From the NCBI GenBank assembly GCA_965279075.1, contig CBDIHI010000009.1:217275-281274 (forward strand): a DNA stretch of 64,000 nt, given 5' to 3'. A program made the position numbers and the translations under genes. Positions 27,866 to 45,773 of the stretch are shown piece by piece. Source of the stretch: Burkholderiales bacterium. GTDB lineage: Bacteria > Pseudomonadota > Gammaproteobacteria > Burkholderiales > SG8-39. The notes under the pieces were generated by a model. The model ran no database searches, was not told where the DNA came from, and saw only the letters and a program-made list of their open reading frames with translations. Every line of letters starts with the position of its first letter. Within the stretch, counting starts at the first letter, position 1.

Positions 27866-30406
27866 TCAGCGCTGCCGCGCCCGCTCGACCTTGACCCCGT
27901 TCTTTTCGGCGAGCGTGTAGTAGCGCAGAGACTCGCCGTAGTCCTTCGGCACGTCGCCCTTGCCCTCGACGTATATGTCGCCAAGCGCCTTGGCGGCCTC
28001 GAAATTGCCGTCCCTGATTGCGCGCGAGTAAAGCCGCACGGCGAGCTTGATGTTTCCGGCGGCCTCCGCCGCCCTCGCCTGCTCGAAATTCGACGGCGCG
28101 GCCGCCACTGCGGTCGGTGCGGCGGAAGCAACCTGTGTATTGCCCCCGGCGGTACTGGCCCCGGGTGCGGGTGCGACTGTGGCCGCCTGCGCAGGCGCTT
28201 CGGCAGGTGCACCTGACTTGGCGGCCCGCTCCCTCTCCAGCCGGTCAGCCCGCTCGGCCAACGTCTCCGTCTTGCGGTCGACCTTCGCGGCCGGCGCAGG
28301 TGCGGGTGCAGGCGCCGCCTTCGGTGCAGCAGCGACAGGTGCGGCAGCGGCAGCCTTGGCTTGGCGATCGGCTTCGGCTTTCTCGGCAGCAACGCGGTCA
28401 GCCTCCGCCTTGGCGCTCGCGTTCCTTTCAGCAGCGGATTTGTCGGCAGCGGCCTTCTCGGCGGCGACTTTGTCGGCAGCCGCCTTCTCCGCATCAGCCT
28501 TCTTCTGCGCGTCAGTCTTTTCCTTGGCCTTTTCGGCCGCGTTCTTCTTGTCTTCCGCGGCCTTCAGGGCGGCCTTGGATTCAGCATCGCGCTGCTTGAC
28601 CAGATCGGCCTGTTTGGCGAGCTCGGCCTCCTTCTTCGCGGTCTCTTCCGCGAGGCGCTTCTGCTCGGCTATGTCGCCACGGGCCTTCGCGGCCTCTTCC
28701 GCCGCCTTCGCATCAGCCACCGCCTTCTGCGCCTGAACCTCGGCTTCACGGGCCTGGTTCAACGCCTCGTTGGCCTTCTTGGCTTGGTCGAGGGCGGCCA
28801 TGAGTTCCTTCATCTCCGGCGCCGGTGCCGGCTTGAAGATGTACCAGCCGCCGAGTCCGAGCGCGACGACCAGCAAGCCAATGCCCGCAGGAACCAGAGG
28901 GGATCCCTTTTTCTTGCGGATCTCCTTGGTCAGATAATCGGTTTCCGCAGCTTTCTTGGCGAGGGCCTCCTCGTTCTTCTTGAGCTCTTCCTCCTGCTTC
29001 TTCAGCTGGACCTGAAGGTCGGCCTCGCGCTTGGCGAGCTTGGCCTCGAACTCGGCTTTCTCCTTGGCTTCCTGTTCGGCGCGGACCTTCGCCTCGGCCT
29101 GGCGCTGGGCCTCGATTTCGGCCGTGCGCTTCTTGTACTCTTCCTCGCGCTTGACGAGTTCAGCCTCGAGCTTGGCCTTCTCCTCGGCGAGCTTGGCCTT
29201 GACCTCGGCCTCGCGGCGGGCAGCTTCCTCGAGTTCGCGCTTCTCCTGCTCGGCGGCCTGGAGCCCCTTGCTGGTGGTCTCCTCACTGGCGACCCCGCGC
29301 AGCTTGGCGCTCTTCCTCTTTGCCAGGGCGGCATAAATGCCGTCCGGGAATTGCTTCACGTAGAGGTCGAAGTCGTCGGCGTCGTTCCCATCCTTGATCG
29401 AACGCCAGAATTCGAGCTCGACTTCCTGGGTTCCCATGGCGCCCGACTGGGAGCCCGTCCCTGCGGCGGGGGCTGCGGCGATGGCCGCAGGCGGCAGCGG
29501 CGCGTCAAACCGGAGCGAGCCCACCACCGTCTTCTCGGTGTCGTCGCCGGGCGCCTTGCCTTCGAGCGCGTTCTTGAGGTCGGTGCCGAGATCCCGCGCG
29601 CTTTGGTACCGCGCGTTCATGTTCTTCGCGAGCGCCTTGGCGATCACCGCGTCGAAAATGGGGGAGATGTTCGTATTGAGCTTGGACGGCATCACCGGCT
29701 CGTCCTGGAGGATCTTCTTTGCGATCGTCCAGGTGCTTGTGCCGGTGAACGGCTTCTCGCCGGTAAGGAACTGGTAAAGGATGATGCCAGCCGAGAAAAT
29801 GTCCGTGCGGCGGTCGATTTCCCCGCCCTCGATCTGCTCGGGCGACATGTAGGCCGGGGTGCCGACGATCGCGCCGGCCTGGGTCTTTTCCGAGGCGGAG
29901 CGGTCAGCATCGGTGATCCGCGCCACACCGAAGTCGGCCAGCTTCACACGGCCCTTGTTGTCGATCATCACGTTCGCGGGCTTGATGTCCCGGTGGATGA
30001 TCCCCGCTTCGTGCGCGAAGTGGAGTGCCTCGCACAACTCGCCCATGATGTGGACGGCTTCCTTGATGTCGAAGCGCTCGTTCGCGTCGAAGAAGTCCTT
30101 GAGCTCCTTGCCCTGGATGAACTCCATCACGATGTACGCGACGTCACCCTCGGCGCCGAAGTCGTACACCTGCACGATGTTGGGATGGTTCAGCCGCGCG
30201 ACCGCCTGGGCCTCGCGGTCGAAGCGCATCGTGTATTCCTTGGCAGTATCCTCATCCAGGGCGCTCTTGAGAATCGTCTTGATCGCGACCTTGCGGTGCA
30301 ACCGCGGGTCCATGCCCGCATAGACGACACCCATGGCGCCCTTGCCCAGGACACTCACGATGTCGTAGCGCCCGAGGCGCTTTATGTCAGATCCGGCTGT
30401 CGACAT
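27866..30406 (-). CDS. Membrane-spanning Hanks-type Ser/Thr protein kinase with coiled-coil, low-complexity and C-terminal Sel1-like repeat regions
   Basis: 846 aa. Kinase motifs GKGAMGVV, VAIK, HRDIKPAN, DFG, TPAYMSPE (residues ~14-280). One TM at ~503-524 (LVPAGIGLLVVALGLGGWYIF). Lys/Ala/Glu-rich segments on both sides of the TM. C-terminal Sel1-type repeat (AAKALGDIYVEGKGDVPKDYGESLRYYTLAEKNG). Confidence 0.85.
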   Translation of the reverse strand: MSTAGSDIKRLGRYDIVSVLGKGAMGVVYAGMDPRLHRKVAIKTILKSALDEDTAKEYTMRFDREAQAVARLNHPNIVQVYDFGAEGDVAYIVMEFIQGKELKDFFDANERFDIKEAVHIMGELCEALHFAHEAGIIHRDIKPANVMIDNKGRVKLADFGVARITDADRSASEKTQAGAIVGTPAYMSPEQIEGGEIDRRTDIFSAGIILYQFLTGEKPFTGTSTWTIAKKILQDEPVMPSKLNTNISPIFDAVIAKALAKNMNARYQSARDLGTDLKNALEGKAPGDDTEKTVVGSLRFDAPLPPAAIAAAPAAGTGSQSGAMGTQEVELEFWRSIKDGNDADDFDLYVKQFPDGIYAALAKRKSAKLRGVASEETTSKGLQAAEQEKRELEEAARREAEVKAKLAEEKAKLEAELVKREEEYKKRTAEIEAQRQAEAKVRAEQEAKEKAEFEAKLAKREADLQVQLKKQEEELKKNEEALAKKAAETDYLTKEIRKKKGSPLVPAGIGLLVVALGLGGWYIFKPAPAPEMKELMAALDQAKKANEALNQAREAEVQAQKAVADAKAAEEAAKARGDIAEQKRLAEETAKKEAELAKQADLVKQRDAESKAALKAAEDKKNAAEKAKEKTDAQKKADAEKAAADKVAAEKAAADKSAAERNASAKAEADRVAAEKAEADRQAKAAAAAPVAAAPKAAPAPAPAPAAKVDRKTETLAERADRLERERAAKSGAPAEAPAQAATVAPAPGASTAGGNTQVASAAPTAVAAAPSNFEQARAAEAAGNIKLAVRLYSRAIRDGNFEAAKALGDIYVEGKGDVPKDYGESLRYYTLAEKNGVKVERARQR

Positions 30407-30586: not shown

Positions 30587-31495
30587 TTATTCCGCTGCGG
30601 CGCGTTTCGCTGCCTCCCGCACCTCGATCGCCATGTGCCGCGCGAGCAGGCCCTCGGCCCGGGAAACCACCGGGAGGTCGATCATTTTCCGGTCCAGGGC
30701 GAACGAACCCCGCCCGACTGCGGCGGCCCTGACGCTCTCTTCCACGATCCGGCGGGCATAGGCGACTTCCTCGACGGCCGGCGAATACTCCTCGTTCACG
30801 ATCGGCACCTGCCCCGGATGGATACAGCCGGCGCCCATGAATCCGAACTGCCGGGAGCGCCGCACCATGGCCCGGAATGCCGCCCAGTCGCCGAAACCAG
30901 CCACGCTGGCGATGAAGCCCAGCGGCATCAGCCCGGCCGAGCAGGCCGCGAAGACCATTTGCTGCTTGGGCATCTGCAGCGCCTCTTCCGAGGGGGCCAT
31001 GCCGTTCTCAAGCGCAAAATCCTCGCCCCCGATATTCATCGCGGCAAGCCGCCCCACGGCACCTGCGATGTCCGCCATACGAAAAAAAGCAGCCGGGGTC
31101 TCGATCATCGCGATAAAGCGGGTATGGCCGGCAGGCAAGCCGCGCTTCAACTCGAGTTCCGCGACCAGTTCGTCTAGCAGGCGCAGGTGGTCGGCCCCTT
31201 GGACCTTGGTGACGGCGATGCCGTTCACGTCCGGGCCGATCGAAGCCTCGAGGTCCCGCACCGCCATCGACAGCGGGCGGTTGATGCGCACCACGACATC
31301 CGCCCCGCCTCGCCGAACGCGCGCCGCCACGGCGGGCACCAGCGTGCGGGCACGGTCCTTCTCGGCAGGGGATACGCTGTCCTCAAGGTCGACCTGGATG
31401 CAGTCGGCTCCGCGGGTATGGGCCTTGTCGACGTACTTCTCCACATTGACAGGGACGTACAGCAGCGAGCGCCATACAGGGAGGCCATCCTTCAT
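30587..31495 (-). CDS. HpcH/HpaI-CitE family acyl-CoA lyase (citryl/malyl/citramalyl-CoA lyase-like)
   Basis: 302 aa. N-terminus RSLLYVPVNVEKYVDKA...DCIQVDLEDSV and the GGEDF motif typical of CitE-like lyases. Its ATG overlaps the upstream CoA-transferase stop (ATGA). Confidence 0.8.
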   Translation of the reverse strand: MKDGLPVWRSLLYVPVNVEKYVDKAHTRGADCIQVDLEDSVSPAEKDRARTLVPAVAARVRRGGADVVVRINRPLSMAVRDLEASIGPDVNGIAVTKVQGADHLRLLDELVAELELKRGLPAGHTRFIAMIETPAAFFRMADIAGAVGRLAAMNIGGEDFALENGMAPSEEALQMPKQQMVFAACSAGLMPLGFIASVAGFGDWAAFRAMVRRSRQFGFMGAGCIHPGQVPIVNEEYSPAVEEVAYARRIVEESVRAAAVGRGSFALDRKMIDLPVVSRAEGLLARHMAIEVREAAKRAAAE

Positions 31496-32754
31496 CCGTC
31501 ACCTTCCTTTGAGTCGGGGCTGCCTTCATAGACCGCCCCCGAGGCGAGCAGCGAAGCGTAGCGCTCCGCATTCACGCCTATTCCGTCGAGCAGAGCCCGG
31601 TTGTGCTCGCCGAGCCCCGGTGCGGGGGTGCGCACTGCGCCTGGCGTGCCCGAAAGCCGTGGCACGACGTGATGCATCGGCAACGCGCCCATGTCGGGAT
31701 CGGGATAGTCGGCGACCAACCCACGTTCCAGCACGTGGGGGTCCTCGAGGATCTGGGCGATGTCGTAAATCGGCCCGATCGTGACTTCCGCCGCCTCGAA
31801 GAAAGCGACGTTCTCCGCCTGGGTCCTTGCGGCGATGAACGTGCCGATGATCGCATCGAGTTCGTTCCGGTGCTTCACGCGTTCGGCATTCGTGCCGTAG
31901 CGGGGATCGTCAATCAGGTCGGCGCGGCCGATCGAGCGGAACAGCCGCTCGGCCATCTTCTGCGTCGAAGCCGAAAGGCACACCCACAACCCGTCACTCG
32001 CACAGTAGGCGTTGCGCGGACCGGAATTGGTCGACCCGCTGCCGACGCGCGGCTTCACCTTGCCAGTGAGCCGGTAATTTGCCGCCTGCGGGCCGAGCAC
32101 AGCGAAGAGCGGATCCAGAAGTGGCAGGTCGATCACCTGCCCGGCGCCGCCGTTGGATTCGACCTCGCGCAGTGCGATCATGACCGCTGAGGCCCCGTAC
32201 AGCCCCGCAACGCTGTCCGCGAGGTACATCGGCGGCAATACAGGCTCCCGGTCGGGAAAGCCGTTCATCGAGGCGAAGCCGGACATCCCCTCCACCAGCG
32301 TGCCGAACCCAGGCCGGTTCCGGTAAGGCCCGTCCTGGCCCCAGCCCGAAATCCTCACGATCACGAGCTTCGGGTTCTTCGCGAGCAGGCGCTCGGGGCC
32401 GAGGCCCATCTTCTCGAGCGTGCCCGGCCGGAAGCTCTCCACCAGGATCGCGGCTGTCGGCACCAGTTCCAGCAGCAGGTCGCGTGCCTCGGGGTTCCTC
32501 AATTCGACGCAAAGGCTCTTCTTGTTCCTCGCGTAGACCTTCCAGTTCGTCGCCACGCCTTTCGTATTCCATGCGCGCAGCGTGTCGCCGGCCGGTGGCT
32601 CGACTTTGATGACTTCCGCGCCGAAATCGCCGAGGACCTGGGTCAAAGTATTCCCCGCGACGAGGCGCGACAGGTCAAGCACGCGTACGCCATCCAGGGG
32701 TCCCTTGGCCCCCGGATCGAAATCACGCGCAAAGGGTTTGGGTTTGCGTGCCAT
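31492..32754 (-). CDS. Family III CoA-transferase (CaiB/BaiF type)
   Basis: ATG at 32754. N-terminus GPLDGVRVLDLSRLVAGNTLTQVLGDFGAEVIKVEPP. The 30 upstream codons of the ORF are Arg/Ser-rich and unlikely to be coding. Confidence 0.85.
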   Translation of the reverse strand: MARKPKPFARDFDPGAKGPLDGVRVLDLSRLVAGNTLTQVLGDFGAEVIKVEPPAGDTLRAWNTKGVATNWKVYARNKKSLCVELRNPEARDLLLELVPTAAILVESFRPGTLEKMGLGPERLLAKNPKLVIVRISGWGQDGPYRNRPGFGTLVEGMSGFASMNGFPDREPVLPPMYLADSVAGLYGASAVMIALREVESNGGAGQVIDLPLLDPLFAVLGPQAANYRLTGKVKPRVGSGSTNSGPRNAYCASDGLWVCLSASTQKMAERLFRSIGRADLIDDPRYGTNAERVKHRNELDAIIGTFIAARTQAENVAFFEAAEVTIGPIYDIAQILEDPHVLERGLVADYPDPDMGALPMHHVVPRLSGTPGAVRTPAPGLGEHNRALLDGIGVNAERYASLLASGAVYEGSPDSKEGDG

Positions 32755-32865
32755 CCCGTCCGCCCTATTCCGGCTGCAAGTTGGCGTCGGCCACGATCTT
32801 GCGCGAGCGCGCAATCTCGCCGCGGACGACCGCCGACTCGGCACACGGCAGGATCAAAGAGGTGC

Positions 32866-33840
32866 TCACGGCTTCTCCGCGACGATAAGCGCGCTGACGA
32901 TCGCGAGGTCCTCGAGCGAATACTTCCGGAAGTCCGGGTGGAATCCGTTGCGGATCGCTTCGTTCATCGGGACCTTCTCTCCCGGTTCGACCTTGAGGAT
33001 CCTGAACCCGGACGCTTCGATCATCCCCGTGAAATCGGAGAGCCGCTTACGGTTCGTGTACATGTAGGCCCGCTCGCCGGCAAAGTTCTCGCGCCATGCC
33101 TTCTCGTCGACCGCAAGGAACGCGAGCGGCTTTGAGAAATCCGCATGGTCGCGCATGTCGAAATGGTGCGCGCTGATCCCGCCCTTGCGCAACACCTTCC
33201 AGAGTGCGGCGACCGTCTTCTCCGGGTCGGAAATATGCTCGAACACGGAATGGGAGAATGCAAAATCGAGCGAGCCCTCCGGAAGCGGGATGTCGTATGA
33301 CTGCCTCGGGTGAAGGTAGGCCATGCGATCCGGATTGAACACGACCCTGCCTTCGCGGATCGAATAGATCTCCGACGCTTTCAGCCTGACGCTCGCCGGC
33401 GCAGCGAGCTTCAGCAGTTCGTAGGCCGCGGCATAGCTGTGGACGTTGTAGAGCTCGGGATCCATGTAGAGATCGAGACCGGAATACCTTTTTGCCCCGG
33501 TCGCCACGAACAGCATGCCCTGCCCGAGGTTGGCGCCGGGGCCAAGTTCGAGGATCGACGGATCGGCGGCCCCATTGCCGTATTGCCTCCAGATCCCGGC
33601 GTAATAGTTGTAGATCCCGATGTTGTAGATCGCCGATCCATTCACCTGCTTGCCGGCGGCGAGCAACTCGAGCAGCGCCTTGTCGTGCCCCGACGGAAGG
33701 AACCCGAGCCGGTTGCCGATCGGCACGCTGGCTGTGATCGCGGATTCCGGCGCCGGGCGCCGGGTAAACAAGTGAAAGCCGATGGCAAGGCCGGTCACGA
33801 ACACCAGGACGCCCAGCAGGGCGAGGCGGGTGCGGGTCAT
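32866..33840 (-). CDS. Class I SAM-dependent methyltransferase with an N-terminal transmembrane anchor
   Basis: Only the last 324 codons of the 808-aa ORF look protein-like. ATG at 33840 overlaps the TRAP permease stop (ATGA). TM LALLGVLVFVTGLAIGFHLF. SAM motif I ILELGPGANLG, post-I SGLDL, plus GSLDFAFSHSVFEHI and LRKGGI. Confidence 0.75.
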   Translation of the reverse strand: MTRTRLALLGVLVFVTGLAIGFHLFTRRPAPESAITASVPIGNRLGFLPSGHDKALLELLAAGKQVNGSAIYNIGIYNYYAGIWRQYGNGAADPSILELGPGANLGQGMLFVATGAKRYSGLDLYMDPELYNVHSYAAAYELLKLAAPASVRLKASEIYSIREGRVVFNPDRMAYLHPRQSYDIPLPEGSLDFAFSHSVFEHISDPEKTVAALWKVLRKGGISAHHFDMRDHADFSKPLAFLAVDEKAWRENFAGERAYMYTNRKRLSDFTGMIEASGFRILKVEPGEKVPMNEAIRNGFHPDFRKYSLEDLAIVSALIVAEKP

Positions 33841-36416
33841 GCGACGGACAGTGCGGGCCGGACAAGGCGCCGCCTCTGCAAGAAAAACACCATCGCGACC
33901 AGGACCAGCGCCGGGACGTATACCCAATGCGGCGAAGGCCGGTTGGCGGGCACCTTTACGCCTGTGACTTTCCATCCCTGCTCGAAGCCGGACTTCTTTG
34001 CGCGGCTGCCGAACTTGACGTTGGCGATGCGCACCTCGCCGCCCAGCGCGCTCAGCATCAGGCCGGCCTCGTTCAGCCGCTGCGGGCCCTCGCCTTCCTT
34101 GCCGAGCTGGACGGCGACGGTCTTGCGGATGTCGTCGCCCTCGACGTTGGTGCCCTCGATCACCATCACCAGCGGCCGGTTGGCCGGCGTTTCCTTCGCG
34201 ATCGCGAGCACCTCCCTTCCGGGGCGGTCCTCGAAAGGCTGATACGCCCGGTCCATGAAGAAGTTCGGGCGAAATAGCATGAACGTGGCGAACAACAGGA
34301 CTCCTATCTCCCACCACTTGCAGCGCGTCTGGAACCAGCCCATCGTCGCGGCCGCAAAAGTCAGCGATGCCACTAGGCAAGCGCCAACGACCAGGACCAG
34401 TTCGAACGGGCCGTGGACGTCGATCAGCAGCAATTGCGGGTTGAAGATCCAGACGAACGGCAGCACGGCGGTGCGCATAATGTACAGCGCGCCCTGGATA
34501 CCCGTCGCAATCGGGTCTTCGCCCGAAATGGCCGCCGCCGCGAACGTAGCAAGGCCCACTGGCGGGGTTACGTCCCCCATGATGCCGTAGTAGAAAACGA
34601 ACAGGTGCACGGCGATCAGGGGAATCACCAGGCCCGACTGGGCCCCCAGCTCCACGATCACCGGCGCCATCAGCGTGGCCACCAGGATGTAGTTCGCCGT
34701 CGTGGGCACGCCAAGACCGAGCACCAGGCAGACGAACGCAGTGAAAAGCAGCATCACCATGACATTGCCGAAGGAAACGAACTCGACGAACTCGGTCATG
34801 CGCAGGCCCAGCCCCGTGAGGGTGATGCCGCCAACGATGATGCCCGCAGTACCGGTTGCGATTGCTATGCCGATCATGCTGCGGGCGCCTTCGTTCAGGC
34901 CGTAGACCACGTCCGCAATCCCGCGTCGGAGTTCGCCGGCCACGCCTTTCCCGCCGCGAAAAAACACCGTCAACGGCCTGTGGGTAGCCATCAGGCCTAC
35001 CAGCACCGCGGTTGCCCAGAATGCTGCCAGCGCTGGCGAGAGCTCCTCGATCATCAGGCACCAGATCAGCGTCCCGATCGGGATCATGAAGTGCAGGCCC
35101 GCCTTCACCGTAGGCCAGGTCTCGGGCTGTACCGGGTGGTCGACGTCGATATCCCGCGGCAGGTCGGGACAGGCCGCCGCCAGGTAAACCGTCCAGACGT
35201 AGAGCCCGGCAAGCAGCGCCGCGAGTAGCCATGGCGCCGCCGCACCGAACTGGCTCTTCGCCGCCTGTGCCACAAAATAGATCGCTCCGCATACGGCAAT
35301 CGTGCCCGACAGACCGAGCCCCCAGCCGACGGCCCGATCGCGCAAGGTCCTCGCGCGCCCAGCCACCATTGGCTCCATCCCAAGCTTCAGCGCCTCGAGG
35401 TGGACAATGTAAAACAGCGCTATGTACGACAGGGCCGCCGGCAGGAACGCGTGCTTGCAGATTTCGGGATACGGGATACCGACGTACTCAACCATCAGGA
35501 ATGCGGCCGCGCCCATTACCGGCGGCATGAGTTGCCCGTCGACCGAGGACATGGTCTCGATGGCGCCGGCCTTGACGCCGCCGTATCCCGCCTTCTTCAT
35601 CAGCGGGATCGTGAATATCCCCCCGGATACCACGTTGGACACCGACGATCCCGAAATCAGCCCGTTCAGGCCGGAAGACACCACTGACACCTTGGCGGGG
35701 CCCCCTCGCAGGTGTCCGAGCAAAGCGAACGACACCTGCATCATGTAGTTCCCGGCGCCGGCGCGATCAAGCATCGCGCCGAACAGGACGTAGATGAAGA
35801 TGAAGCTCGATGAGACACCCAGGGCCACCCCGAATACGCCTTCGGTGGTCAGCCATTGGTGGGACAGCATGCGCTCAAACGACGCCCCCTTGTGTGCCAG
35901 CACGTCCGGCAGGTGCTTGCCGAAGAGGATGTAACCGAGAAAGAACAACGCAAGGACCGCCATCGGGAGCCCCACCGCGCGCCGGGTCGCTTCGAGCAGC
36001 AGGACCACACCAATCGTGCCGGTGACGATGTCCAGGGTGGTGGGTTGGCCCGGGCGCGCGGCGAGGTCACTGTAGAAGAGGATCAGGTAGGCGCCGGCGA
36101 ACGCGGCGACAAGCGCAAGAATCACATCGAACGCCGGGATCCGGTCGCGCGGCGAATTCCTGAACGCGGGATAGGCGAGGAAGCCCAGGAACAACGCCAG
36201 GCCCAGGTGCAGGGAGCGTGCCTCGGTGTCGTTCAGGATGCCCATGCCGAAGGTGAACGGCAGCGGAGAGGCGTACCAGAACTGGAACAGCGACCACGCC
36301 ACCGCCACCGCGAATACCACCTTGCCAGGAAGGCCACCGAGCTTGCGCCCGCCGGTGTCCGATTCGGCCACGAGCTGCAGGAGGTCGGGATTGGCTGCCT
36401 TACCTTGTTCTGACAC
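33837..36416 (-). CDS. TAXI-type TRAP transporter fused permease (DctQ/DctM-like 4TM/12TM fusion with C-terminal DUF3394-like domain)
   Basis: 859-aa polytopic protein resembling TRAP 4TM/12TM fusion permeases. C-terminal soluble segment plus a final TM. GTG start at 36416 with AGGGGG upstream. Confidence 0.85.
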   Translation of the reverse strand: MSEQGKAANPDLLQLVAESDTGGRKLGGLPGKVVFAVAVAWSLFQFWYASPLPFTFGMGILNDTEARSLHLGLALFLGFLAYPAFRNSPRDRIPAFDVILALVAAFAGAYLILFYSDLAARPGQPTTLDIVTGTIGVVLLLEATRRAVGLPMAVLALFFLGYILFGKHLPDVLAHKGASFERMLSHQWLTTEGVFGVALGVSSSFIFIYVLFGAMLDRAGAGNYMMQVSFALLGHLRGGPAKVSVVSSGLNGLISGSSVSNVVSGGIFTIPLMKKAGYGGVKAGAIETMSSVDGQLMPPVMGAAAFLMVEYVGIPYPEICKHAFLPAALSYIALFYIVHLEALKLGMEPMVAGRARTLRDRAVGWGLGLSGTIAVCGAIYFVAQAAKSQFGAAAPWLLAALLAGLYVWTVYLAAACPDLPRDIDVDHPVQPETWPTVKAGLHFMIPIGTLIWCLMIEELSPALAAFWATAVLVGLMATHRPLTVFFRGGKGVAGELRRGIADVVYGLNEGARSMIGIAIATGTAGIIVGGITLTGLGLRMTEFVEFVSFGNVMVMLLFTAFVCLVLGLGVPTTANYILVATLMAPVIVELGAQSGLVIPLIAVHLFVFYYGIMGDVTPPVGLATFAAAAISGEDPIATGIQGALYIMRTAVLPFVWIFNPQLLLIDVHGPFELVLVVGACLVASLTFAAATMGWFQTRCKWWEIGVLLFATFMLFRPNFFMDRAYQPFEDRPGREVLAIAKETPANRPLVMVIEGTNVEGDDIRKTVAVQLGKEGEGPQRLNEAGLMLSALGGEVRIANVKFGSRAKKSGFEQGWKVTGVKVPANRPSPHWVYVPALVLVAMVFFLQRRRLVRPALSVA

Positions 36417-36429
36417 GTGGGGCCCCCTG

Positions 36430-36461
36430 AAACAAAAAGGGCGGAATCTTCATTCCGCCCC
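36430..36461 (-). terminator. Intra-operon terminator/attenuator hairpin between the TAXI binding-protein and permease genes
   Basis: On the minus strand: GGGCGGAAT-GAAG-ATTCCGCCC followed by TTTTTGTTT, then AGGGGG and the GTG of the permease. Confidence 0.6.
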
Positions 36462-36484
36462 TGAAAAACGTCCGGCGAGATGCT

Positions 36485-37459
36485 TTACTTCAGCCAGCCC
36501 TTTTCCTTGTAGTACTTGGCAGCACCGTCATGCAGCGGCGCGGACAAGCCATCGACGATCATGCGCTCGGGCTTGAGGATGGCCAGCGCGGGATGCAGCT
36601 TCTTGAACTCGTCGAAGTTGTCGAATACCGCCTTGACCACGGCGTAGACCGTTTCCGCCGGAACTTTCGACGATGACACGACCGAAGCCAGCACCCCGTA
36701 CGTCTTGGTATCGGCCGGGTTGTTCGGGTACAGCCCGCCGGGAATGGTGGCATATGCATAGTAGGGCTTGTCCTTCACCAGCTTGTCCACCGCGGGCCCG
36801 GTAACCGAAACGAGCTTCGCGGCACAAGTGGTGGTCGGGTCCTGGATGTTGGCCGAAGGATGCCCCACGCCATAGAAGAAACCGTCGATCTTGCCGTCGC
36901 AGAGCGCGGGACCGTGCTCGTCCGCCTTGAGCTCGGAGGCGAGCGCGAAATCGCCGAGCTTCCAGCCCATCGCGGCAAGCAGCTCCTCCATCGAGGCACG
37001 AGTGCCGGAACCGGGGTTGCCGACGTTGAACTTCTTGCCCTTGAAGTCGGCAAACGACCTGATGTTGGCCTCCTTGCGCGCAAGGACGGTAAACGGCTCC
37101 GGGTGAAGGCTGAACACCGACCGCAGCTCGCCGTAGGGCGCATCCTTGAACTGGGCCTGGCCCTTGAACGCGTTGTAGGACACGTCGGACTGGGACATTC
37201 CCATGTCGAGTTCGCCCGCCTTGATCGTGTTCACGTTGAACACCGATCCGCCGGTCGACTCGACTGAACAGCGGATCCCGTGGGATTTCCGGTCCTTGTT
37301 GACCAGGCGGCATATCGCACCACCCGCAGCGTAGTAGACGCCGGTGACGCCTCCCGTGCCGATGGTCACGTACTTCTGCTGCGCCTGCGCGGCGGGTGCC
37401 GAGAACATCAGTGTGCCGGCGGCGGCGAGCACTGCGGCCAAGGGTGCGACTTTTTTCAT
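36485..37459 (-). CDS. TAXI-family TRAP transporter solute-binding protein
   Basis: 324 aa with signal peptide ([21 protein letters not shown]). TAXI hallmark [19 protein letters not shown]. Confidence 0.85.
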
Positions 37460-37507
37460 CGGGAACTCCCGTCTGGTGTACGTCAGGGAAGCTTATCCAA
37501 GCGCGTC

Positions 37508-38851
37508 CTAGGCGGCAAGCGCTTCCGGCACGCCCAGCGTCGCAGACAGCGCAGCCGAAAATTTCGCCACCAGTTCGTCGAGCTGCGCCTCCTCTACGAT
37601 GAAAGGCGGCGCGAACAACACGTGATCCCCCTGCACGCCGTCAAGCGTCCCGCCCATCGGATAGCACATCAGACCGGATTCGAGCGCGGCCTTCTTCAGC
37701 CTGACATTCACCTTGAGAGCCGGGTCGAAGGGCTTCTTCGTCGCACGGTCTTCCACCAGCTCCACCGCCTGGAACAGCCCGCGGCCGCGGATGTCTCCTA
37801 CATGGGGATGTCGCCCGAACGCCGCCCTCAGCTTGCGATCGAGGGCCGCGCCTATCGAGCCGACACGTTCGAGCAAACCGTCCTCATTGAGCCTCTTCTG
37901 GACGGCGAGCGCGCCTGCGCATGCCGCCGCGTGGCCCAGGTACGTATGGCCGTGCTGGAAGAAGCCGCTGCCGGCGACGATGGCGTCGTAGACCTTGCTG
38001 CTCGCGATCACCGCACCGATCGGCTGGTAGCCGGCACCCAGTCCCTTGGCAATGCAGACGAGGTCGGGCACCACACCCTCCTGCTCGAACGTGAAGAGGG
38101 TCCCGCACCGGCCCATGCCGCACATCACCTCGTCGAGGATCAGCAGCACGCCGTACTTGTCGCAGATTTCCCTCACCCGCTTGAAATATCCGGGCACCGG
38201 CGTCACCGCGCCCAGCGTTGCGCCCACTACCGTCTCGGCGACGAACGCAATCACCTTGTCGGCGCCCAGGCGCAGGATCTCCGCTTCGAGTTCGGCCGCC
38301 AGCCGCGTGGCATAGGCGTCGTCGCCTTCGCCCGCCTCCTTGCCGCGATACTCGAAGCAGGGCGACACATGGGCGACGTCGATCAGCAACGGCTCGAACT
38401 GCTTGCGACGCCAGGCGTTTCCGCCGACCGCAAGCGCGCCGAGCGTGTTGCCGTGGTAACTGCCGCGTCGCGCGATGATGTGCTCGCGCTGCGGCTCGCC
38501 TTTCTCGACACAATACTGCCGCGCGAGCTTCAGCGCGGCTTCCACGGCCTCGGAGCCGCCCGAAACGAAGTAGACCCGGTCGAACTCCGATGGAGAACGG
38601 CGGATCAACTCGTCAGCGAGCGCTTCCATCGGCTCGTTGGAGAAAAACGAGGTGTGCGCGAAAGGCAGGCGGTCGAGCTGGGCCTTGATCGCGTCGATGA
38701 CGGCCCGGTCCGAATGCCCCAGACAGGAGACCGCGGCACCGCCCGAAGCGTCGAGGTATCGCTTTCCCTCGCGGTCTACCAGGTAGGCGCCGTCGCCGCG
38801 AACCGCGACGGGATAGTCGTTCTTCGGAGTGCGATGGAAGACGTGGCTCAT
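37508..38851 (-). CDS. Class III (omega) PLP-dependent aminotransferase
   Basis: ATG at 38851. Motifs LDASGGAAVSCLGH, YFVSGGSEAVEAALKLAR, LILDEVMCGMGRCG, and the CIAKGLGAGYQP lysine motif. Confidence 0.85.
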   Translation of the reverse strand: MSHVFHRTPKNDYPVAVRGDGAYLVDREGKRYLDASGGAAVSCLGHSDRAVIDAIKAQLDRLPFAHTSFFSNEPMEALADELIRRSPSEFDRVYFVSGGSEAVEAALKLARQYCVEKGEPQREHIIARRGSYHGNTLGALAVGGNAWRRKQFEPLLIDVAHVSPCFEYRGKEAGEGDDAYATRLAAELEAEILRLGADKVIAFVAETVVGATLGAVTPVPGYFKRVREICDKYGVLLILDEVMCGMGRCGTLFTFEQEGVVPDLVCIAKGLGAGYQPIGAVIASSKVYDAIVAGSGFFQHGHTYLGHAAACAGALAVQKRLNEDGLLERVGSIGAALDRKLRAAFGRHPHVGDIRGRGLFQAVELVEDRATKKPFDPALKVNVRLKKAALESGLMCYPMGGTLDGVQGDHVLFAPPFIVEEAQLDELVAKFSAALSATLGVPEALAA

Positions 38852-38867
38852 GCGGCCCTCGGGAAGG

Positions 38868-40697
38868 TCAGGCGGCGAGTTTCTCGTGCAGCAGAGTGCG
38901 GCGCGCCTCGAGCTCGACCGGCAGGTGGGCGCCGAGCTTGCCCAGGAGCTCATCGTGCGAATGCAGTTCTTCGGCCCAGGCGTCGTGCTTCACTTCGCTC
39001 AGCTCGGCGTACTGGTCACGCGAGAACTTCTCCAGCCCCGCCCAGGTCAGGTCCTCATAGGCCGGCATGATGCCCAGCGGGGTGGTCCTGCCCTTGGCGC
39101 CGCCTTCGCAGCGCTGCACGATCCACTGCAGCACGCGCATGTTCTCGCCGAACCCCGGCCAGATGAACTTGCCCGCCGCGTCGCGCCGGAACCAGTTCAC
39201 GCGGAAGATCTTCGGCGCCTTGGCGTGGGCCTTGCCGACCTTCAGCCAGTGTGCGAAATAGTCACCGATGTTGTAGCCGCAGAACGCAAGCATCGCCATC
39301 GGGTCGCGCCGCACCACGCCCACCTTGCCGGTGATCGCCGCCGTGGTCTCGGAGCCGAGCGTCGCCGCCATGTATACGCCGTCCTCCCAGCCCGGGGCCT
39401 CGACGACCAATGGCACAGTCGACGAGCGCCGGCCACCGAACAGGAAAGCCGAAATCGGCACGCCGGCGGGATCCTCCCACTTCGCGTCCATCGAAGGGCA
39501 TTGCGATGCGGGTACCGTGAAGCGCGAGTTTGCATGGGCTGCGAGGCGCCCGCAGCCGGGGGCCCATTCCTGGCCCTGCCAGTCGATCAGCTTCGCCGGC
39601 GGCACGTCGGTCATGCCCTCCCACCATACGTCTCCCTCGGGCGTCAGCGCGACGTTCGTGAAGATGACATTGGAGCGCAGCGTCTTCATCGCGTTCGGGT
39701 TGGTGGCATCCGAAGTTCCCGGCGCCACACCGAAGAATCCCGCCTCGGGGTTGATCGCGTAGAAGCGCCCGTCCTTGCCCGGCTTGATCCAGGCGATGTC
39801 CTCGCCCACCGTGGTGATCTTCCAGCCCGCGAAGCTCTTGGGCGGGATCATCATCGCGAAGTTGGTCTTGCCGCATGCCGAAGGGAAGGCGGCGGATACG
39901 TAGTGCTTCTCTCCCTTGGGCGACTCGACACCCAGGATCAGCATGTGCTCGGCGAGCCAGCCTTCGTCGCGCGCCATGATCGAGGCGATGCGCAGCGCCA
40001 GGCACTTCTTGCCGAGCAGGGCGTTGCCGCCGTAGCCCGAACCGAACGACCAGATCTCGCGCGACTCCGGGAAATGGACGATCCACTTCTCCTTGTCGTT
40101 GCACGGCCACGGCACGTCCTTCTGCCCGGCCGCCAGCGGCGCGCCGACGGAATGTACGCACGGGACGTACGCACCATTCTCCCCGAGGTGGTCGACCACC
40201 GCGCGTCCCATGCGCGTCATCATGCGCATGTTGACCACGACGTAGGCCGAGTCCGAGACCTCGACCCCGACCTGGGCGATATGGGAGCCGATCGGGCCCA
40301 TCGAGAACGGCACCACGTACATCGTGCGGCCGCGCATGCAACCGTCATAGAGGCGCTGGAGGGTGCCGCGCATCTCGGCCGGTTCCACCCAGTTGTTGGT
40401 CGGGCCGGCATCGTCCTTCTTCGTGCTGCAGATGAAGGTGCGGTCTTCCATGCGCGCGACGTCGGTAGGGTGCGAGCGCGCGAGGTAGCTGCCGGGGCGC
40501 AGCTTCTCGTTCAACTTGAGGAACGTGCCCGCAGCCACCAGCTCGCCACACAAGCGGGTATTTTCTTCCTCGGAACCGTCGCACCAGACGATGCGCTCCG
40601 GCTTGGTCAGCCGCGCAACCTTGGAGACCCACTCTCGCAGGGCGCGGTGGCGCACGTAATCCGGGGCATTGGAAATATCGGTGCGTGGGTCATTCAT
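38868..40697 (-). CDS. pckG: Phosphoenolpyruvate carboxykinase (GTP)
   Basis: 609 aa. GTP-PEPCK signatures FPSACGKTN and [11 protein letters not shown]. Confidence 0.95.
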
Positions 40698-40866: not shown

Positions 40867-41928
40867 TCATCGCCGTTTTTTGATTTTCTCGGCGAGCGTA
40901 CGCGCCACCCTGAAAAGCGTGCCGATCCCGCTTACCAACACCAGTACCCGCATCACTTGTGCGGCCGTCACCAGGGGAACACCGAGTTGCAGCACCTTGG
41001 CCGTGATGCACATCTCCGCGATGCCGCCGGGGGCCGTCGCGAGGATTACGCTTGGAACCGGCAACCCGTACGCCCAGGCCAGCCCGGCGCCACCCGTTGC
41101 GGCAAGCCCGATGGCGAGCAGGATGCTCGCAAGCGTCGCCGCGACGAACCCGGGTACGCGATCGAGGAATCCACGCTCGAAGCGACTGCCAAGCGCGCAG
41201 CCGATCAGCAGCTGGCCGAGGTTGGATACGACGGGCGGCATGGCCGAGAAATGCACCTCGCCCACGGTGAGCGCGATCACGCTGAACAGCGCACCGAGCA
41301 TGAAGGCGTTCGGCATGCCCGCCGCGGAGAGAAGCCCGCCGCCCGCCGCCGCGATTGCCAGCAGCAGCGCGAGCTTTCCCCAGTCGAGCGCCGCGGAGGC
41401 CGGTGCATAGGTGTCGGCGCCGTGTACCCCGGAGTACGTCAGCGCAAACGGAACCACGATCACCACCGCAAGAATGCGCATCGATTGGGCTATCGCCACA
41501 CGATCCACCCTCCCTCCGAATCGCTCGGCCAGGATCGCCATCTCGGCCGCCCCACCCGGCACGCTCGCGAAGAACGCCGTGACCCCATCCGTGCCCGTCA
41601 CCCGGCTGATAAACCAGGCACATATGCAGGCGATCAGGATCGCGAGCAGCGCGGCCAGCAGAAGGAAGTGCCAGTACGACACGACCTGTTGCGCCACAGC
41701 GGGCGTGAAATACAGTCCCAGCGCCGTGCCTATCACCACCTGCCCGCCGGGGCGTGCGCCGACCGGCGCCCTGAGGCGCGCCCCCGAGAAATTGCACACG
41801 GCCATCAAGAGGAGCGGCCCGATCATCCAGGGCAACGGTGTACGCAGCCAGGAGAACAGCGCGCCTCCTGCGGCACACAGGGCGAGGCTCGTCACTGGGT
41901 TCAGGAACGTGTCGCGCGCAGCCTTCAC
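40867..41928 (-). CDS. AbrB-family (PF05145-type, putative ammonia monooxygenase-like) integral membrane protein
   Basis: 353-aa polytopic protein with internal duplication and the [14 protein letters not shown] / [13 protein letters not shown] pair typical of this family. The GTG start overlaps the mnmE stop (GTGA). Confidence 0.7.
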
Positions 41929-43274
41929 TTGCCGATGCAGAAGCGCGAGAAGATTTCCCCCAGCAGGTCGTCGGGGGTGAATTCACCCGTGATGGAGGAG
42001 AGCGCCTCCTGCGCGAGGCGCAACTCCTCTGCGAAGAACTCGGCACGGGCATGCTGCGCACACGCCGCTTCCAGCCCTTCGCCGGCAAGCGCAAGCGCGC
42101 GCAAGTGTCGCTCGCGCGCCACGAACGCGGATTCCCCGTCCCGCTCCCAGCCGGCGGCCTGCAGCAGAGCAAACCTCAGCAGGTCGATCCCGAGATCTTC
42201 CTTTGCTGAAAGGAACACCTCGCGGGCCTCTCCCTCCCGCACTTCGGGCTGAAGGCCGGCGAGGTCGATCTTGTTGAAGACGTGGATTCGCGCGATGCCC
42301 GCAGGAATGCGCGCGAGGATCTCGCGGTCGGCGGCGGTGACGCCGTCTTCGGCGTCGAACAGGATCACGACGACATCGGCGCGGTCGAGCTCCTTCCAGG
42401 TTCGCTCTATTCCGAGACGCTCGACTTCGTCGCCGGATTCACGCAGTCCCGCGGTGTCGACTATGTTGAGCGGCACGCCCTCGATGGAAATGGCTTCCCT
42501 GACCGTGTCCCGCGTCGTGCCCGGGATCGGCGTCACGATGGCCCGATCCACGCCGGCCAGGCGGTTCAGCAGGCTCGATTTTCCGACGTTGGGCCGTCCC
42601 GCCAGCACGATGCTGATGCCCGAGCGCAAGAGGCTGCCCTGGCGGCTCCTCGCCAGCACGCTCGCCAGCGCGGCTCTCGTCGCAGCCAGCCGCGCGCGCA
42701 GGTCTTCGCGGTGGACCTCGTCGATCTCCTCTTCGGGGAAGTCGAGGCCCGCCTCCGTCAAGGCGCGCAACTCGGTCAACCGTTCAACGAGCCCGTGGAT
42801 CGCCGCGGAGAACTCGCCCGATAGCGAGCGCATCGCGCCTCGTGCCGCCTCGGCGGTCGATGCCTCGATCAGGTCGGCAACGGCTTCGGCCTGGGCCAGG
42901 TCCAGCTTGCCGTTGAGGAACGCCCGCCGGGTGAACTCCCCCGGCTCGGCCAGCCGGGCACCGGCATCGATGCAGGCGGCGAGGACCGAAGCAAGAACGA
43001 CGGGACCGCCATGGCCCTGCAGTTCGAGGATGGCTTCTCCGGTGTAGGAGTTTGGGGCGGGAAAGTGGAGCGCCACGCCTTGGTCGAGGACGGCACCGTC
43101 TGCCGTTCGCATGGTGACCAGCGTTGCCTGGCGGGCGACGGGAAGTTTTCCGACGATCCTTGTCGCGACTTCCGGGGCCCCCGGCCCGGAAACCCGCACA
43201 ACGCCGATCCCGCCGCGGCCGGCGGGAGTGGCGATGGCCGCTATCGTGTCGCGGACCGGGTCAGCGCTTGGCAT
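41925..43274 (-). CDS. mnmE: tRNA modification GTPase MnmE (TrmE)
   Basis: 449 aa. [23 protein letters not shown]-terminus, G-domain [12 protein letters not shown] and DTAGLR, and the C-terminal CIGK. Confidence 0.96.
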
Positions 43275-45556: not shown

Positions 45557-45691
45557 TCAGACCGCCAGTCGCGCGCGGCCGCGGGCGCGTCGCGCATTGA
45601 TCACCGCACGACCACCGGGAGTTTTCATGCGCGCGCGAAATCCGTGAGTCCGGGTACGACGCGTTTTTGAGGGTTGATAGGTACGCTTCAT
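45557..45691 (-). CDS. rpmH: 50S ribosomal protein L34
   Basis: Not in the ORF track (44 aa). Manual translation of the minus strand gives [44 protein letters not shown], with GAGG 6 nt upstream. Confidence 0.95.
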
Positions 45692-45719
45692 GACTGCCTC
45701 GGGCCGCAAAAAGGCGCGT

Positions 45720-45748: not shown

Positions 45749-45773
45749 ATTTCCGGGATTTTTGTGCCGGGCC

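Follow-up and report, generated by a model that had tools for sequence, protein, structure and literature searches.

An ori-proximal gene array in a Burkholderiales bacterium: a recurrent aminotransferase-TAXI transporter unit among gene sets that were probably accreted

Several described systems resemble parts of the locus analyzed here. In the itaconate modules of Pseudomonas aeruginosa (Ict-Ich-Ccl) and Yersinia (RipABC), a CoA-transferase and a CitE-like C-C lyase lead to acetyl-CoA and a 2-oxo acid. Within Burkholderiales, orphan genes for Bug/TctC receptors lie beside genes for enzymes acting on the receptor's ligand. Among class-III aminotransferases, use of the glutamate/2-oxoglutarate pair is common, and one enzyme of this class, the acyl-CoA beta-transaminase Kat, is paired in lysine fermentation with Kce of the BKACE family. 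The BKACE reaction is the cleavage of a beta-keto acid, as in the deoxyribonate cleavage enzyme (bioRxiv 10.1101/205583). For uptake, VcGluP (VC0430) and GluQM (VC0429) of Vibrio cholerae constitute a glutamate-specific TAXI-TRAP transporter (PDB 8S4J, 9IBO; PMC11574862, PMC12718363).

Layout of the array

The window, a stretch of 64,000 nucleotides, carries an array of seven ORFs, which an ORF and codon check places entirely on the minus strand with GC3 values of 0.81-0.88. They are listed here with the elements between them and the flanking kinase gene.

38868-40697, minus: pckG, GTP-dependent PEP carboxykinase, the array's first gene
37508-38851, minus: class-III (omega-type) PLP aminotransferase, NF005685/PRK07483 family
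36485-37459, minus: TAXI-family TRAP solute-binding protein with signal peptide
36437-36462, minus: terminator/attenuator-like hairpin in the binding-protein/permease gap (11-pair stem, 4-nt loop, T-run)
33837-36416, minus: fused TAXI-TRAP membrane component (Q-M fusion) with C-terminal DUF3394 "claw" domain
32866-33840, minus: TM-anchored class-I SAM methyltransferase (Methyltransf_11)
32765-32818, minus: relic of a tctC 3' end (Bug-family tricarboxylate-type receptor)
31492-32754, minus: family-III (CaiB/BaiF) CoA-transferase
30587-31495, minus: HpcH/CitE-like acyl-CoA (beta-hydroxyacyl-CoA) lyase
27866-30406, minus: flanking Ser/Thr protein kinase (Pkinase E = 3e-59)

Pfam and NCBIfam profile matches agree with the families first named for all seven ORFs, and re-reading of the sequence returned the junction lengths of the preliminary description: 16 nt between pckG and the aminotransferase, 48 nt between the aminotransferase and the TAXI binding protein, 68 nt with a terminator-like hairpin between the binding protein and the permease, an ATGA overlap (-4 nt, 33840-33837) between permease and methyltransferase, 111 nt containing TTGCGCGCTCGCGCAA at 32799-32814 between methyltransferase and CoA-transferase, and a second ATGA overlap (-4 nt, 31495-31492) between CoA-transferase and lyase. 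As had been described, the array stretch holds neither a hydratase nor a regulator gene. A terminator-like site lies at 40736-40720 between pckG and the upstream abrB-like gene, and a terminator scan of the window found no intrinsic terminator between the permease and CitE. In all 11 comparable clade loci, which are MAGs throughout, the order aminotransferase-TAXI-(methyltransferase)-(tctC)-CaiB-CitE is co-directional and tightly spaced, with junctions of 4-5 nt from the methyltransferase through CaiB in locus L168. Given this order and the lack of a detected terminator after the permease, the array is probably co-transcribed, and some physiological coupling within the lineage is likely.

The aminotransferase-TAXI unit

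The aminotransferase matches NF005685 with 766.7 bits (cutoff 485) and PF00202 with E = 2.6e-95, and its best solved relative, 3i4j, is a structure without assigned function. Among the best 80 metagenomic aminotransferase loci (62-80% identity to the window's enzyme), a TAXI system adjoins the gene in 27-29, a count that, like the other neighborhood counts given here, covers the top 80 hits per scan as read by a home-made ORF caller and not complete genomes. Where at least 4 kb of flank is available on both sides, TAXI genes are adjacent in 12 of 25 loci. Gene order varies (same-strand, divergent, or permease-first), the loci span GC contents of 0.46-0.73, and the adjacency is also found in Photobacterium and on plasmids of Alpha- and Gammaproteobacteria; Haematobacter massiliensis has a complete RpiR-aminotransferase-BKACE-binding protein-permease operon, and gene coordinates suggest a similar adjacency in Rhizobium sullae and a Paracoccaceae isolate. 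Because the adjacency recurs so far outside the lineage and in differing orders, the earlier proposal of a functional link between the two holds. The aminotransferase and its transporter (binding protein, conserved hairpin, and fused permease) are, as judged from comparative genomics, a real module, and their linkage is consistent with an amino(di)carboxylate being imported and then transaminated. This pair, as yet uncharacterized, is the only widely conserved unit in the array.

The binding protein (TIGR02122, 332.8 bits; cutoff 84) is 80% identical to PDB 9OZ4, its nearest solved structure, and 55% identical to VcGluP (8S4J/9IBO). When compared with the ligand-site residues of VcGluP taken from PMC11574862, it keeps every direct glutamate contact (Y45, S75, Q93, E125, and Y200). 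Also retained are H123 and Y46, which coordinate water, and the cysteines in the alignment, whereas positions 40, 157, and 201 are G, T, and G instead of S, D, and M. Across 33 aminotransferase-linked binding proteins, each at least 48% identical to that of the window, Y45, S75, Q93, H123, and E125 are kept in 33/33, G40 is present in all, and position 157 is never D. By comparison, S40, D157, and M201 occur in VcGluP and in a V. campbellii TAXI protein without a neighboring aminotransferase, the contrast being drawn with these two GluP-type references only. The permease (TIGR02123, 710 bits, cutoff 321; both PF06808 and PF11874 matched) has the same fused Q-M architecture with C-terminal DUF3394 claw as VcGluQM (PMC11574862), and in both systems the binding-protein gene lies upstream of the permease gene. 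The V. cholerae gluPQM genes differ in their neighbors, which are argR, mdh, and uspA, with no aminotransferase at the locus.

The hairpin between the two transporter genes, AGGGGCGGAAT-gaag-ATTCCGCCCTT followed by a T-run at 36462-36437, is identical in sequence in loci L001 and L006-L015, and distant TAXI loci have different, equally strong hairpins at the matching position. The clade thus shares its sequence, and more distant loci share its position; from its place 3' of the binding-protein gene it would keep the binding protein well in excess of the permease. The periplasmic TAXI protein would bind a close amino-acid relative of L-glutamate and pass it to the fused permease with its DUF3394 claw for import driven by an ion gradient, after which the PLP aminotransferase would move the amino group onto a 2-oxo-acid acceptor.

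A possible fate of the resulting oxo acid is indicated by other genomes. BKACE genes occur in 14-18 of the 80 aminotransferase loci and RpiR genes in about 15, and many genomes show translational coupling of the orthologous aminotransferase gene to BKACE (PF05853) and TAXI genes. The logic would be that of BKACE pathways, from amino acid to beta-keto acid, with the adjacent BKACE, under the RpiR regulator, splitting the latter into acyl-CoA and acetoacetate. A literature search found no described pathway joining TAXI, an NF005685-type aminotransferase, and BKACE. The locus described here differs in that BKACE is absent from the 64-kb window and from every clade locus; the unit here has no RpiR gene either and has been placed behind pckG.

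The CoA-transferase-lyase pair and the methyltransferase

The CoA-transferase (PF02515, 388.7 bits) falls below all NCBIfam equivalog cutoffs, the best being succinate-glutarate CoA-transferase (257 bits against a cutoff of 750), and its best PDB match is human SUGCT (9BR6, 199 bits). The lyase matches PF03328 with 97.9 bits and PF15617 just under threshold (28.3 against 28.4 bits), scores below the citE, RipC/Ccl, and malyl-CoA lyase equivalog cutoffs, and belongs to a highly conserved orthologue group (65-88% identity among the best 80 species). The best solved relatives of the two enzymes, human SUGCT and CLYBL (PDB 5VXC, 93 bits), both act on C5-C6 (hydroxy)dicarboxylates. The similarity is distant, however, and in the PDB comparison the lyase is about as far from CLYBL as from malyl-CoA lyase and RipC, so substrate identity is not transferable to the window pair. 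Like the itaconate modules, the window combines a CoA-transferase with a CitE-like C-C lyase, and distant orthologues of the pair sit with a MaoC-like dehydratase, a PrpD-family protein, and a second CaiB. It differs from them in lacking a hydratase, in a transferase that reaches no equivalog cutoff, in a lyase that scores 127 bits against a cutoff of 375 for RipC_Ccl (NF038242), and in its uptake partner, a TctC receptor in place of the transport genes found there. The overlapping ATGA translationally couples the CoA-transferase to the lyase.

The preliminary description had read the genes from the aminotransferase to the lyase as a single catabolic module feeding PEPCK, and had proposed looking across genomes for the set of methyltransferase, TAXI, CaiB, CitE, and aminotransferase. 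This set is not co-conserved in related genomes, and of the module only the aminotransferase-TAXI link stands, whereas membership of pckG, the methyltransferase, the CoA-transferase, and the lyase is not supported. Outside the clade, 53 of 64 loci have CaiB immediately upstream of CitE, as a pair alone with unrelated flanks. None of the 70 CitE loci outside the clade has a match to TAXI, aminotransferase, pckG, or methyltransferase, and CaiB-CitE is near the aminotransferase in none of the 80 metagenomic aminotransferase loci. Outside the clade a TctC gene often precedes the pair, whose wider surroundings include IclR, TctC, MaoC-like dehydratase, PrpD, and a second CaiB. As far as gene neighborhoods can tell, CaiB-CitE forms a module of its own, associated with a TctC receptor.

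A remnant of that receptor gene is present in the window itself. The 16-bp palindrome noted earlier in the 111-nt spacer (32799-32814) does exist, but it lacks conservation and falls within the remains of a pseudogene. The relic reads in frame as GEIARSRKIVADANLQPE against SEIARWQKVARDAGIQSD of the intact TctC of L168, each followed by a stop, with 36/54 nt identical to L168 tctC; no other ungapped match in the window, on either strand, is as good, and similar C-termini occur in 14 other loci. At the matching position, tctC is intact in L168, a frameshifted pseudogene in L006 (E = 3e-26), and an internally deleted pseudogene copy in L011 (E = 1e-15), while only its last 18 codons survive in the window. 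By this alignment the spacer holds the decayed 3' end of tctC, and with so few codons left the window's pair is without a dedicated receptor. The order tctC-caiB-citE, with overlapping or very short junctions in L168 and the 14 other loci, resembles Bug/TctC-associated gene pairs, from which the window differs in retaining the remnant only. In such a module the transferase would convert a C4-C6 (hydroxy)dicarboxylate to its CoA thioester, the donor probably being succinyl-CoA, and the Mg-dependent lyase would cleave the thioester to acetyl-CoA and an oxo acid or aldehyde acid, the dedicated TctC receptor having been lost in the window's lineage.

The methyltransferase (PF08241; GC3 of 0.83, like its neighbors) is modeled by AF2 at a pLDDT of 88, residues 3-26 forming a TM helix, with a methyltransferase domain of the Rossmann type; a Foldseek search returned generic methyltransferases only (TM about 0.4). 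The family is rare (48 hits), occupies 3 of 11 comparable junctions, and has homologues, at up to 60% identity, in glycosyltransferase and glycan clusters. This distribution indicates a sporadic insertion where two units meet, probably lineage restricted, with relatives that would modify glycans and no catabolic role to be expected.

A variable slot next to oriC

The gene order mnmE, abrB-like gene, pckG ... gidA, gidB, parA, parB is syntenic across the clade, and what lies between varies. In sister lineages L086, L092, and L093, an MFS gene and then gidA come after the permease, and in L099 gidA comes directly after the aminotransferase; none of these four has CaiB or CitE. The identity of pckG is clear (NF003253, 991 bits, cutoff 504; both PEPCK Pfam domains), and it would serve as a gluconeogenic PEP carboxykinase. 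Its adjacency to the aminotransferase is found in the nearest lineages only and is lineage specific. We consider it fairly likely that the array consists of four separately inherited sets, namely, pckG, the aminotransferase-TAXI unit, the methyltransferase, and the tctC relic with CaiB-CitE, which were accreted beside oriC in a variable slot bounded by mnmE/pckG and gidA, and that it is not one pathway.

A single pathway, in which TAXI import, transamination, CoA activation, and lyase cleavage of an amino-dicarboxylate would feed PEPCK with the methyltransferase as an accessory, can be drawn chemically: the oxo-dicarboxylate from the aminotransferase, reduced to a 3-hydroxy-dicarboxylate, would suit a SUGCT-like transferase and an HMG- or citramalyl-CoA-type lyase. 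The co-directional genes with tight or overlapping junctions, the missing terminator signal after the permease, and the order held in 11 clade loci, L168 included, agree with it. The reductase or hydratase needed to join the halves is absent, though, the halves never meet in the 70 CitE and 80 aminotransferase loci outside the clade, and sister lineages carry pckG-aminotransferase-TAXI without CaiB-CitE. The pair's own TctC receptor, of which it still brings a remnant, moreover implies a separate substrate, and the methyltransferase occupies only 3 of 11 junctions, so that we regard a single pathway as quite improbable. The reverse proposal, that conserved ori-proximal synteny left all these adjacencies, that of aminotransferase and TAXI included, as neutral by-products, draws on the clade-wide order from mnmE to parB. 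It is contradicted by the recurrence statistics, namely, the aminotransferase-TAXI adjacency in unrelated contexts, orientations, plasmids, and GC contents and the 53 of 64 CaiB-CitE adjacencies with unrelated flanks, and has very little probability.

It could also be supposed that the transporter is a plain GluPQM orthologue and that the aminotransferase uses L-glutamate as a general amino donor, making with pckG an operon for growth on glutamate by uptake, conversion to 2-oxoglutarate, and gluconeogenic exit, with no unusual substrate. The 55% identity to VcGluP with all direct L-glutamate-contacting side chains conserved, the shared DUF3394 architecture, pckG 16 nt upstream, and the customary glutamate/2-oxoglutarate pair of class-III aminotransferases all speak for such an operon. 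We nevertheless think it unlikely, as positions 40, 157, and 201 set all aminotransferase-linked TAXI proteins apart from the two GluP-type proteins, V. cholerae gluPQM has no adjacent aminotransferase, and only one lineage shows the linkage to pckG. The frequent BKACE partner, furthermore, indicates that the product is a beta-keto acid (bioRxiv 10.1101/205583), and 2-oxoglutarate does not belong to that class.

The flanking kinase gene lies downstream of CitE in the clade, L168 included, and is absent from sister lineages L086, L092, L093, and L099. The encoded protein combines a kinase domain, a coiled region, a TM segment, and a Sel1 repeat; it shares the variable slot with the tctC-caiB-citE block and is no pathway member.

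The array and its chromosomal setting

Seven genes, all on the minus strand and of even GC3 (0.81-0.88), occupy positions 30587-40697. We think it probable that this array arose by the accretion of four units: pckG, an aminotransferase with a TAXI-TRAP transporter, a methyltransferase, and a tctC relic followed by a CoA-transferase (CaiB) and a CitE-like lyase. Its main interest lies in the aminotransferase-TAXI(-BKACE-RpiR) module, which is conserved and uncharacterised (BKACE standing for an enzyme that cleaves beta-keto acids, PF05853), together with the binding-site signature of that module. TAXI-TRAP transporters occur widely but are little understood (Davies et al. 2024), and those with a known ligand are very few; the module itself is a known kind of system and not a new kind. 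For every gene, Pfam and NCBIfam agree on the family named in the preliminary description, which had been made from the sequence alone.

Features of the array and its surroundings
Minus strand, first of the seven: pckG, GTP-PEPCK; equivalog match of 990.9 bits against a cutoff of 504, both domains present
Minus strand: class-III (omega) aminotransferase (AT) of the NF005685/PRK07483 group; 766.7 bits against a cutoff of 485, model positions 1-439
Minus strand: TAXI solute-binding protein (SBP); TIGR02122, 332.8 bits against a cutoff of 84.35; PF16868, E = 5e-89
Minus strand, 68 nt downstream of the SBP gene: fused Q-M permease with DUF3394; TIGR02123, 710 bits against a cutoff of 320.65
Minus strand: methyltransferase (MT), 324 aa; N-terminal transmembrane helix and Methyltransf_11 domain
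Minus strand: family-III CoA-transferase (CaiB/BaiF); PF02515, 388.7 bits, 1-366 of 366 profile positions
Minus strand: CitE-like lyase; PF03328, 97.9 bits against a cutoff of 25; PF15617, 28.3 against 28.4, just under
27866-30406, minus strand: Ser/Thr kinase, 846 aa; very long Ala/Lys/Glu-rich coiled region, transmembrane segment, C-terminal Sel1 repeat
45674-50982, plus strand: dnaA, dnaN, gyrB
41925-44940, minus strand: yidC, mnmE
22198-26352, minus strand: gidA, gidB, parA, parB
About 15617-22064, minus strand: atp operon

On re-reading, the junctions are as first described, with gaps of 16, 48 and 68 nt, an ATGA overlap, a 111-nt spacer and a second ATGA overlap. The 68-nt spacer holds a strong hairpin with a T-run, and the 111-nt spacer contains the palindrome noted earlier, TTGCGCGCTCGCGCAA. 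A promoter and terminator scan of 27.5-41.2 kb gave counts at or below shuffle expectation, the credible sites being just the hairpin 3' of the SBP gene and a site upstream of pckG, and the whole window gave no match to Rfam and no tRNA. As no terminator was predicted 3' of the permease, this lineage probably transcribes the four units together.

The window covers the part of a high-GC, betaproteobacterial-type chromosome that lies near the origin. One flank holds dnaA-dnaN-gyrB, with rnpA-yidC-mnmE-abrB-like immediately before pckG; the other, after the array, holds the Ser/Thr kinase, a divergent MR_MLE enzyme, gidA-gidB-parA-parB and the atp operon (names in the origin region come from N-terminal sequences and synteny with L001, a compared locus annotated by Pfam). 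Because the array is origin-proximal, synteny among close relatives is expected whatever the function of the genes, and the origin neighbourhood accounts for much of the synteny around the array across its clade, that is, the close relatives sharing the order AT-TAXI-(MT)-(tctC)-CaiB-CitE. The kinase is restricted to the clade with the tctC-caiB-citE insertion, sister lineages being without it.

The aminotransferase-TAXI module and its binding pocket

The link between aminotransferase and transporter, one part of the single undescribed catabolic module first proposed, is borne out by its recurrence in varied orders and in cultured bacteria. An aminotransferase-anchored metagenome scan (best 80 loci, 62-80% identity) places the TAXI SBP and permease next to the aminotransferase in 27-29 of 80 loci, and a TAXI system adjoins it in 12 of the 25 loci that have at least 4 kb on each side. 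The orders seen are AT>SBP>permease, AT>BKACE>SBP>permease, SBP>permease>AT>BKACE and divergent arrangements, over a GC range of 0.46 to 0.73. The translated aminotransferase contains CIAKGLG, which we take to be the PLP-lysine motif, the lysine being assigned from knowledge of the fold. Adjacency of pckG is confined to the four nearest of the 80 loci (L086, L092, L093 and L099), where either an MFS gene and gidA come after the permease, or gidA stands directly behind the aminotransferase. Since sister lineages fill it differently, the permease-gidA segment is a variable slot, which in the clade under study is occupied by tctC-caiB-citE, the kinase and MR_MLE.

The fullest form of the module is a compact RpiR-AT-BKACE-TAXI SBP-permease operon on plasmid pOT1-4 of Haematobacter massiliensis OT1 (L172, 6104-13070); the window carries its AT-TAXI core, BKACE and RpiR being absent from the window and the clade loci. 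The aminotransferase also adjoins a TAXI system in Photobacterium sp. DA100, and, by coordinates, the matches to aminotransferase and SBP lie 0.3-1.2 kb apart in Rhizobium sullae and in a Paracoccaceae isolate. Sinorhizobium meliloti pSymB encodes RpiR-AT with a divergent BKACE, and a TAXI system of 78% identity some 14 kb off; it was ruled out as a clean model, as the two are not adjacent. A literature search for aminotransferase, BKACE and TAXI/TRAP together found no relevant paper. The hairpin 3' of the SBP gene is kept in sequence within the clade, and distant TAXI loci have other, equally strong hairpins at the same position, as expected of an element that would raise SBP expression relative to the permease. 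In L098, L110 and L120 the place of TAXI is taken by an amino-acid ABC transporter (SBP_bac_3, permease, ATPase), encoded upstream of the aminotransferase along with RpiR and a C45/AAT-family acyltransferase-like protein; DAO-type and dimethylglycine-dehydrogenase-like oxidoreductases are sometimes near.

The SBP shares 80% identity with PDB entry 9OZ4, for which a literature search found no publication, and 55% with Vibrio cholerae GluP (VcGluP, VC0430; 8S4J, 9IBO), which binds L-glutamate specifically (PMC11574862). In the alignment to 8S4J, all five direct L-glutamate contacts of VcGluP (Y45, S75, Q93, E125 and Y200) are identical, and H123, Y46, G156 and G203 are likewise conserved. In VcGluP, S40 and D157 each coordinate a ligand-bound water, and M201 makes a main-chain contact to the amino group (PMC11574862). 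These three residues are G, T and G in the window SBP, in 9OZ4 and in the clade, a departure from the GluP type. Positions 40/157/201 read G/T/G, G/Q/T or G/T/L in every one of the 33 aminotransferase-linked SBPs whose identity to the window SBP is 48% or more, and a Vibrio campbellii plasmid TAXI with no aminotransferase nearby retains S/D/M. A G/Q/T-type TAXI without an adjoining aminotransferase does occur on an Aliiroseovarius crassostreae plasmid (L174, 2671-9966), so that the signature is not strictly bound to the enzyme; its neighbours are a Cache-domain two-component system and UspA, with aldehyde dehydrogenase and acyl-CoA dehydrogenase upstream. A TAXI subfamily thereby presents itself for de-orphanisation, with a structure (9OZ4), a diagnostic pocket signature, an uncharacterised aminotransferase family and BKACE as conserved partners, and cultured hosts in H. 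massiliensis, Photobacterium sp. DA100 and S. meliloti.

From the pocket residues we infer a ligand near glutamate but not necessarily glutamate, and E125, through its contact with the amino group, favours an amino acid. The frequency of BKACE as a partner points to a beta-keto acid as what the aminotransferase makes in those genomes. BKACEs convert a beta-keto acid and acetyl-CoA to an acyl-CoA and acetoacetate (bioRxiv 10.1101/205583), and the partnership makes beta-amino acids, such as beta-glutamate, attractive candidate ligands. It is conceivable, if unlikely, that the RpiR-AT-BKACE-TAXI operon, which is widely distributed, encodes a pathway not yet described that acts on a beta-amino dicarboxylate (beta-glutamate, for example), with the window carrying a reduced AT-TAXI version and the clade a CaiB-CitE exit. 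Uptake would then proceed through the GluP-like TAXI system with its pocket altered at 40, 157 and 201, transamination would yield 3-oxoglutarate, and BKACE with acetyl-CoA would give malonyl-CoA and acetoacetate; the SUGCT-like transferase and the HMG-/citramalyl-CoA-type lyase accreted in the window's clade might offer a different way out, recruited to work through a 3-hydroxy-dicarboxylyl-CoA.

The CaiB-CitE pair and the tctC relic

Neither enzyme of the pair reaches an assigned function. All seven NCBIfam matches of the CoA-transferase to the succinate-glutarate, formyl-CoA, oxalate, mesaconate and carnitine equivalogs fall below cutoff (best 257 against 750 bits), and the lyase is below those for citrate lyase beta (148.8 against 443), RipC-Ccl (127.1 against 375) and malyl-CoA lyase (43.9 against 500). 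Human SUGCT is a distant solved relative of the transferase (199 bits), and the lyase is about equidistant from CLYBL, malyl-CoA lyase and RipC (approximately 85-93 bits). Plasmid matches to CaiB-CitE are all below 52% identity, and a literature search on the substrate of the pair found nothing relevant. By family membership, CaiB would move CoA onto a (hydroxy)dicarboxylate and the lyase would carry out retro-Claisen cleavage of a beta-hydroxyacyl-CoA to acetyl-CoA and an oxo acid or aldehyde acid; candidate substrates are C4-C6 hydroxy-dicarboxylates such as malate, citramalate and 3-hydroxy(-3-methyl)glutarate.

A CitE-anchored scan (one genome per species, best 80 loci, 65-88% identity, tblastn with all window proteins) returned loci that are nearly all MAGs labelled Burkholderiales or Betaproteobacteria. 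The nine with at least 78% CitE identity show the full pckG-AT-SBP-permease-CaiB-CitE order, or as much of it as the contig holds (that of L010 begins at the SBP). Among the 70 loci outside those nine, 53 of the 64 with room have CaiB immediately upstream of CitE, and a TctC (Bug-family) receptor gene typically precedes the pair. The enzyme pair of tctC-caiB-citE is uncharacterised, highly conserved, and common in uncultured Burkholderiales-type MAGs. The largest group has a long array (L038-L085, e.g., L048 7728-20888) of IclR-TctC-CaiB-CitE-TctC-(intradiol-dioxygenase-like or MmgE/PrpD)-MaoC-like dehydratase-second CaiB-TctC-Methyltransf_31/DOT1-like-...-3-hydroxyacyl-CoA dehydrogenase, with genes for a PEP-mutase/ICL-family protein and a 2-hydroxyacid dehydrogenase both running divergently from it. 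The logic of this distant array is itaconate-like, whereas the window is without such logic: no enoyl-CoA or MaoC-type hydratase lies between 27.8 and 41 kb, and only in distant genomes does one stand beside CaiB-CitE.

The 111-nt spacer upstream of caiB encodes, in frame, GEIARSRKIVADANLQPE-stop, the canonical C-terminus of TctC. Other loci have comparable termini such as NEITRWRQVAREANIQPE-stop, and that of L168, a metagenomic contig with the order AT-SBP-permease-MT-intact TctC (326 aa)-CaiB-CitE, reads SEIARWQKVARDAGIQSD-stop. Aligned to 32765-32818, the final 54 nt of the L168 tctC agree at 36 of 54 positions, and with both strands of the window counted (127,892 positions in all) nowhere else gives so good an ungapped match; the runners-up stand at 32/54, and at least one of them falls on the 3' end of the other tctC copy in the window. 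Upstream of caiB there is also a frameshifted tctC pseudogene in L006 (8200-8768; tblastn E = 3e-26), a copy with an internal deletion in L011 (8480-8760; E = 1e-15) and a shorter relic in L001 (4540-4643). It follows from the relic and these stages of decay that CaiB-CitE came in together with a receptor of its own, as a tctC-caiB-citE unit, and that this receptor was lost later; the loss was apparently repeated and independent in related species, with caiB-citE kept intact. An operator or terminator role for the palindrome was rejected, as it has no T-run and neither L001 nor L006 conserves it. What it matches instead are the codons I-A-R-W-Q-K of the L168 tctC, intact there and decayed here, and as a pseudogene remnant it is no evidence for a shared pathway.

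The methyltransferase and the case for accretion

The MT family is rare (48 clusters among 5.8 billion proteins), and the gene sits at the permease-tctC junction in 3 of 11 comparable loci (window, L001/L010 and L168). Homologues of 60% identity or less are found among glycosyltransferase, Wzy, GtrA, YfhO/PMT_2, radical-SAM and asparagine-synthase-like genes. In an AF2 model (pLDDT 88), a disordered linker lies between a transmembrane helix and a class-I SAM methyltransferase domain; in this domain motif I (GxGxG) is intact, an acidic residue follows strand 2, and G100, P101, G102 and D123 do not vary among 44 homologues. Foldseek returned many methyltransferases at probability 1.0, but only generic small-molecule ones, at TM of about 0.4, and all PDB sequence matches were at E = 4e-4 or weaker. 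Its GC3 gives a native codon composition and no indication of recent transfer. We read the MT as a sporadic insertion that would have no catabolic role, and its ATGA coupling to the permease is predicted to indicate the same transcript and nothing beyond. A methyltransferase-like gene recurring in distant CaiB clusters was considered as its kin and rejected as unrelated.

An integrated single pathway, assembled through lineage-specific recruitment, would fit the tight packing seen clade-wide, including junctions of 4-5 nt in L168. We nevertheless consider it very unlikely, since the AT-TAXI genes and CaiB-CitE do not travel together beyond one lineage: tblastn detects the TAXI proteins, the aminotransferase, pckG and the MT in 0 of the 70 CitE loci outside the clade, and CaiB, CitE, the MT and the kinase in 0 of the 80 aminotransferase-anchored loci. 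These key counts rest on tblastn because a GC3-based ORF caller missed some genes, such as the MT and CaiB in L012, L013 and L015. The single module first proposed holds for its AT-TAXI part and not for the inclusion of CaiB/CitE, the MT and pckG. Accretion together with gene decay can yield tight junctions and ATGA overlaps in one genome, which calls for caution when such packing is read as shared function.

Near the window edge, a second family-III CoA-transferase paralogue (1672-2895, minus strand; PF02515, 448 bits) adjoins a TctC fragment (11-490, plus strand), and Bug/CaiB paralogues appear plentiful in this genome, as is typical of Burkholderiales.
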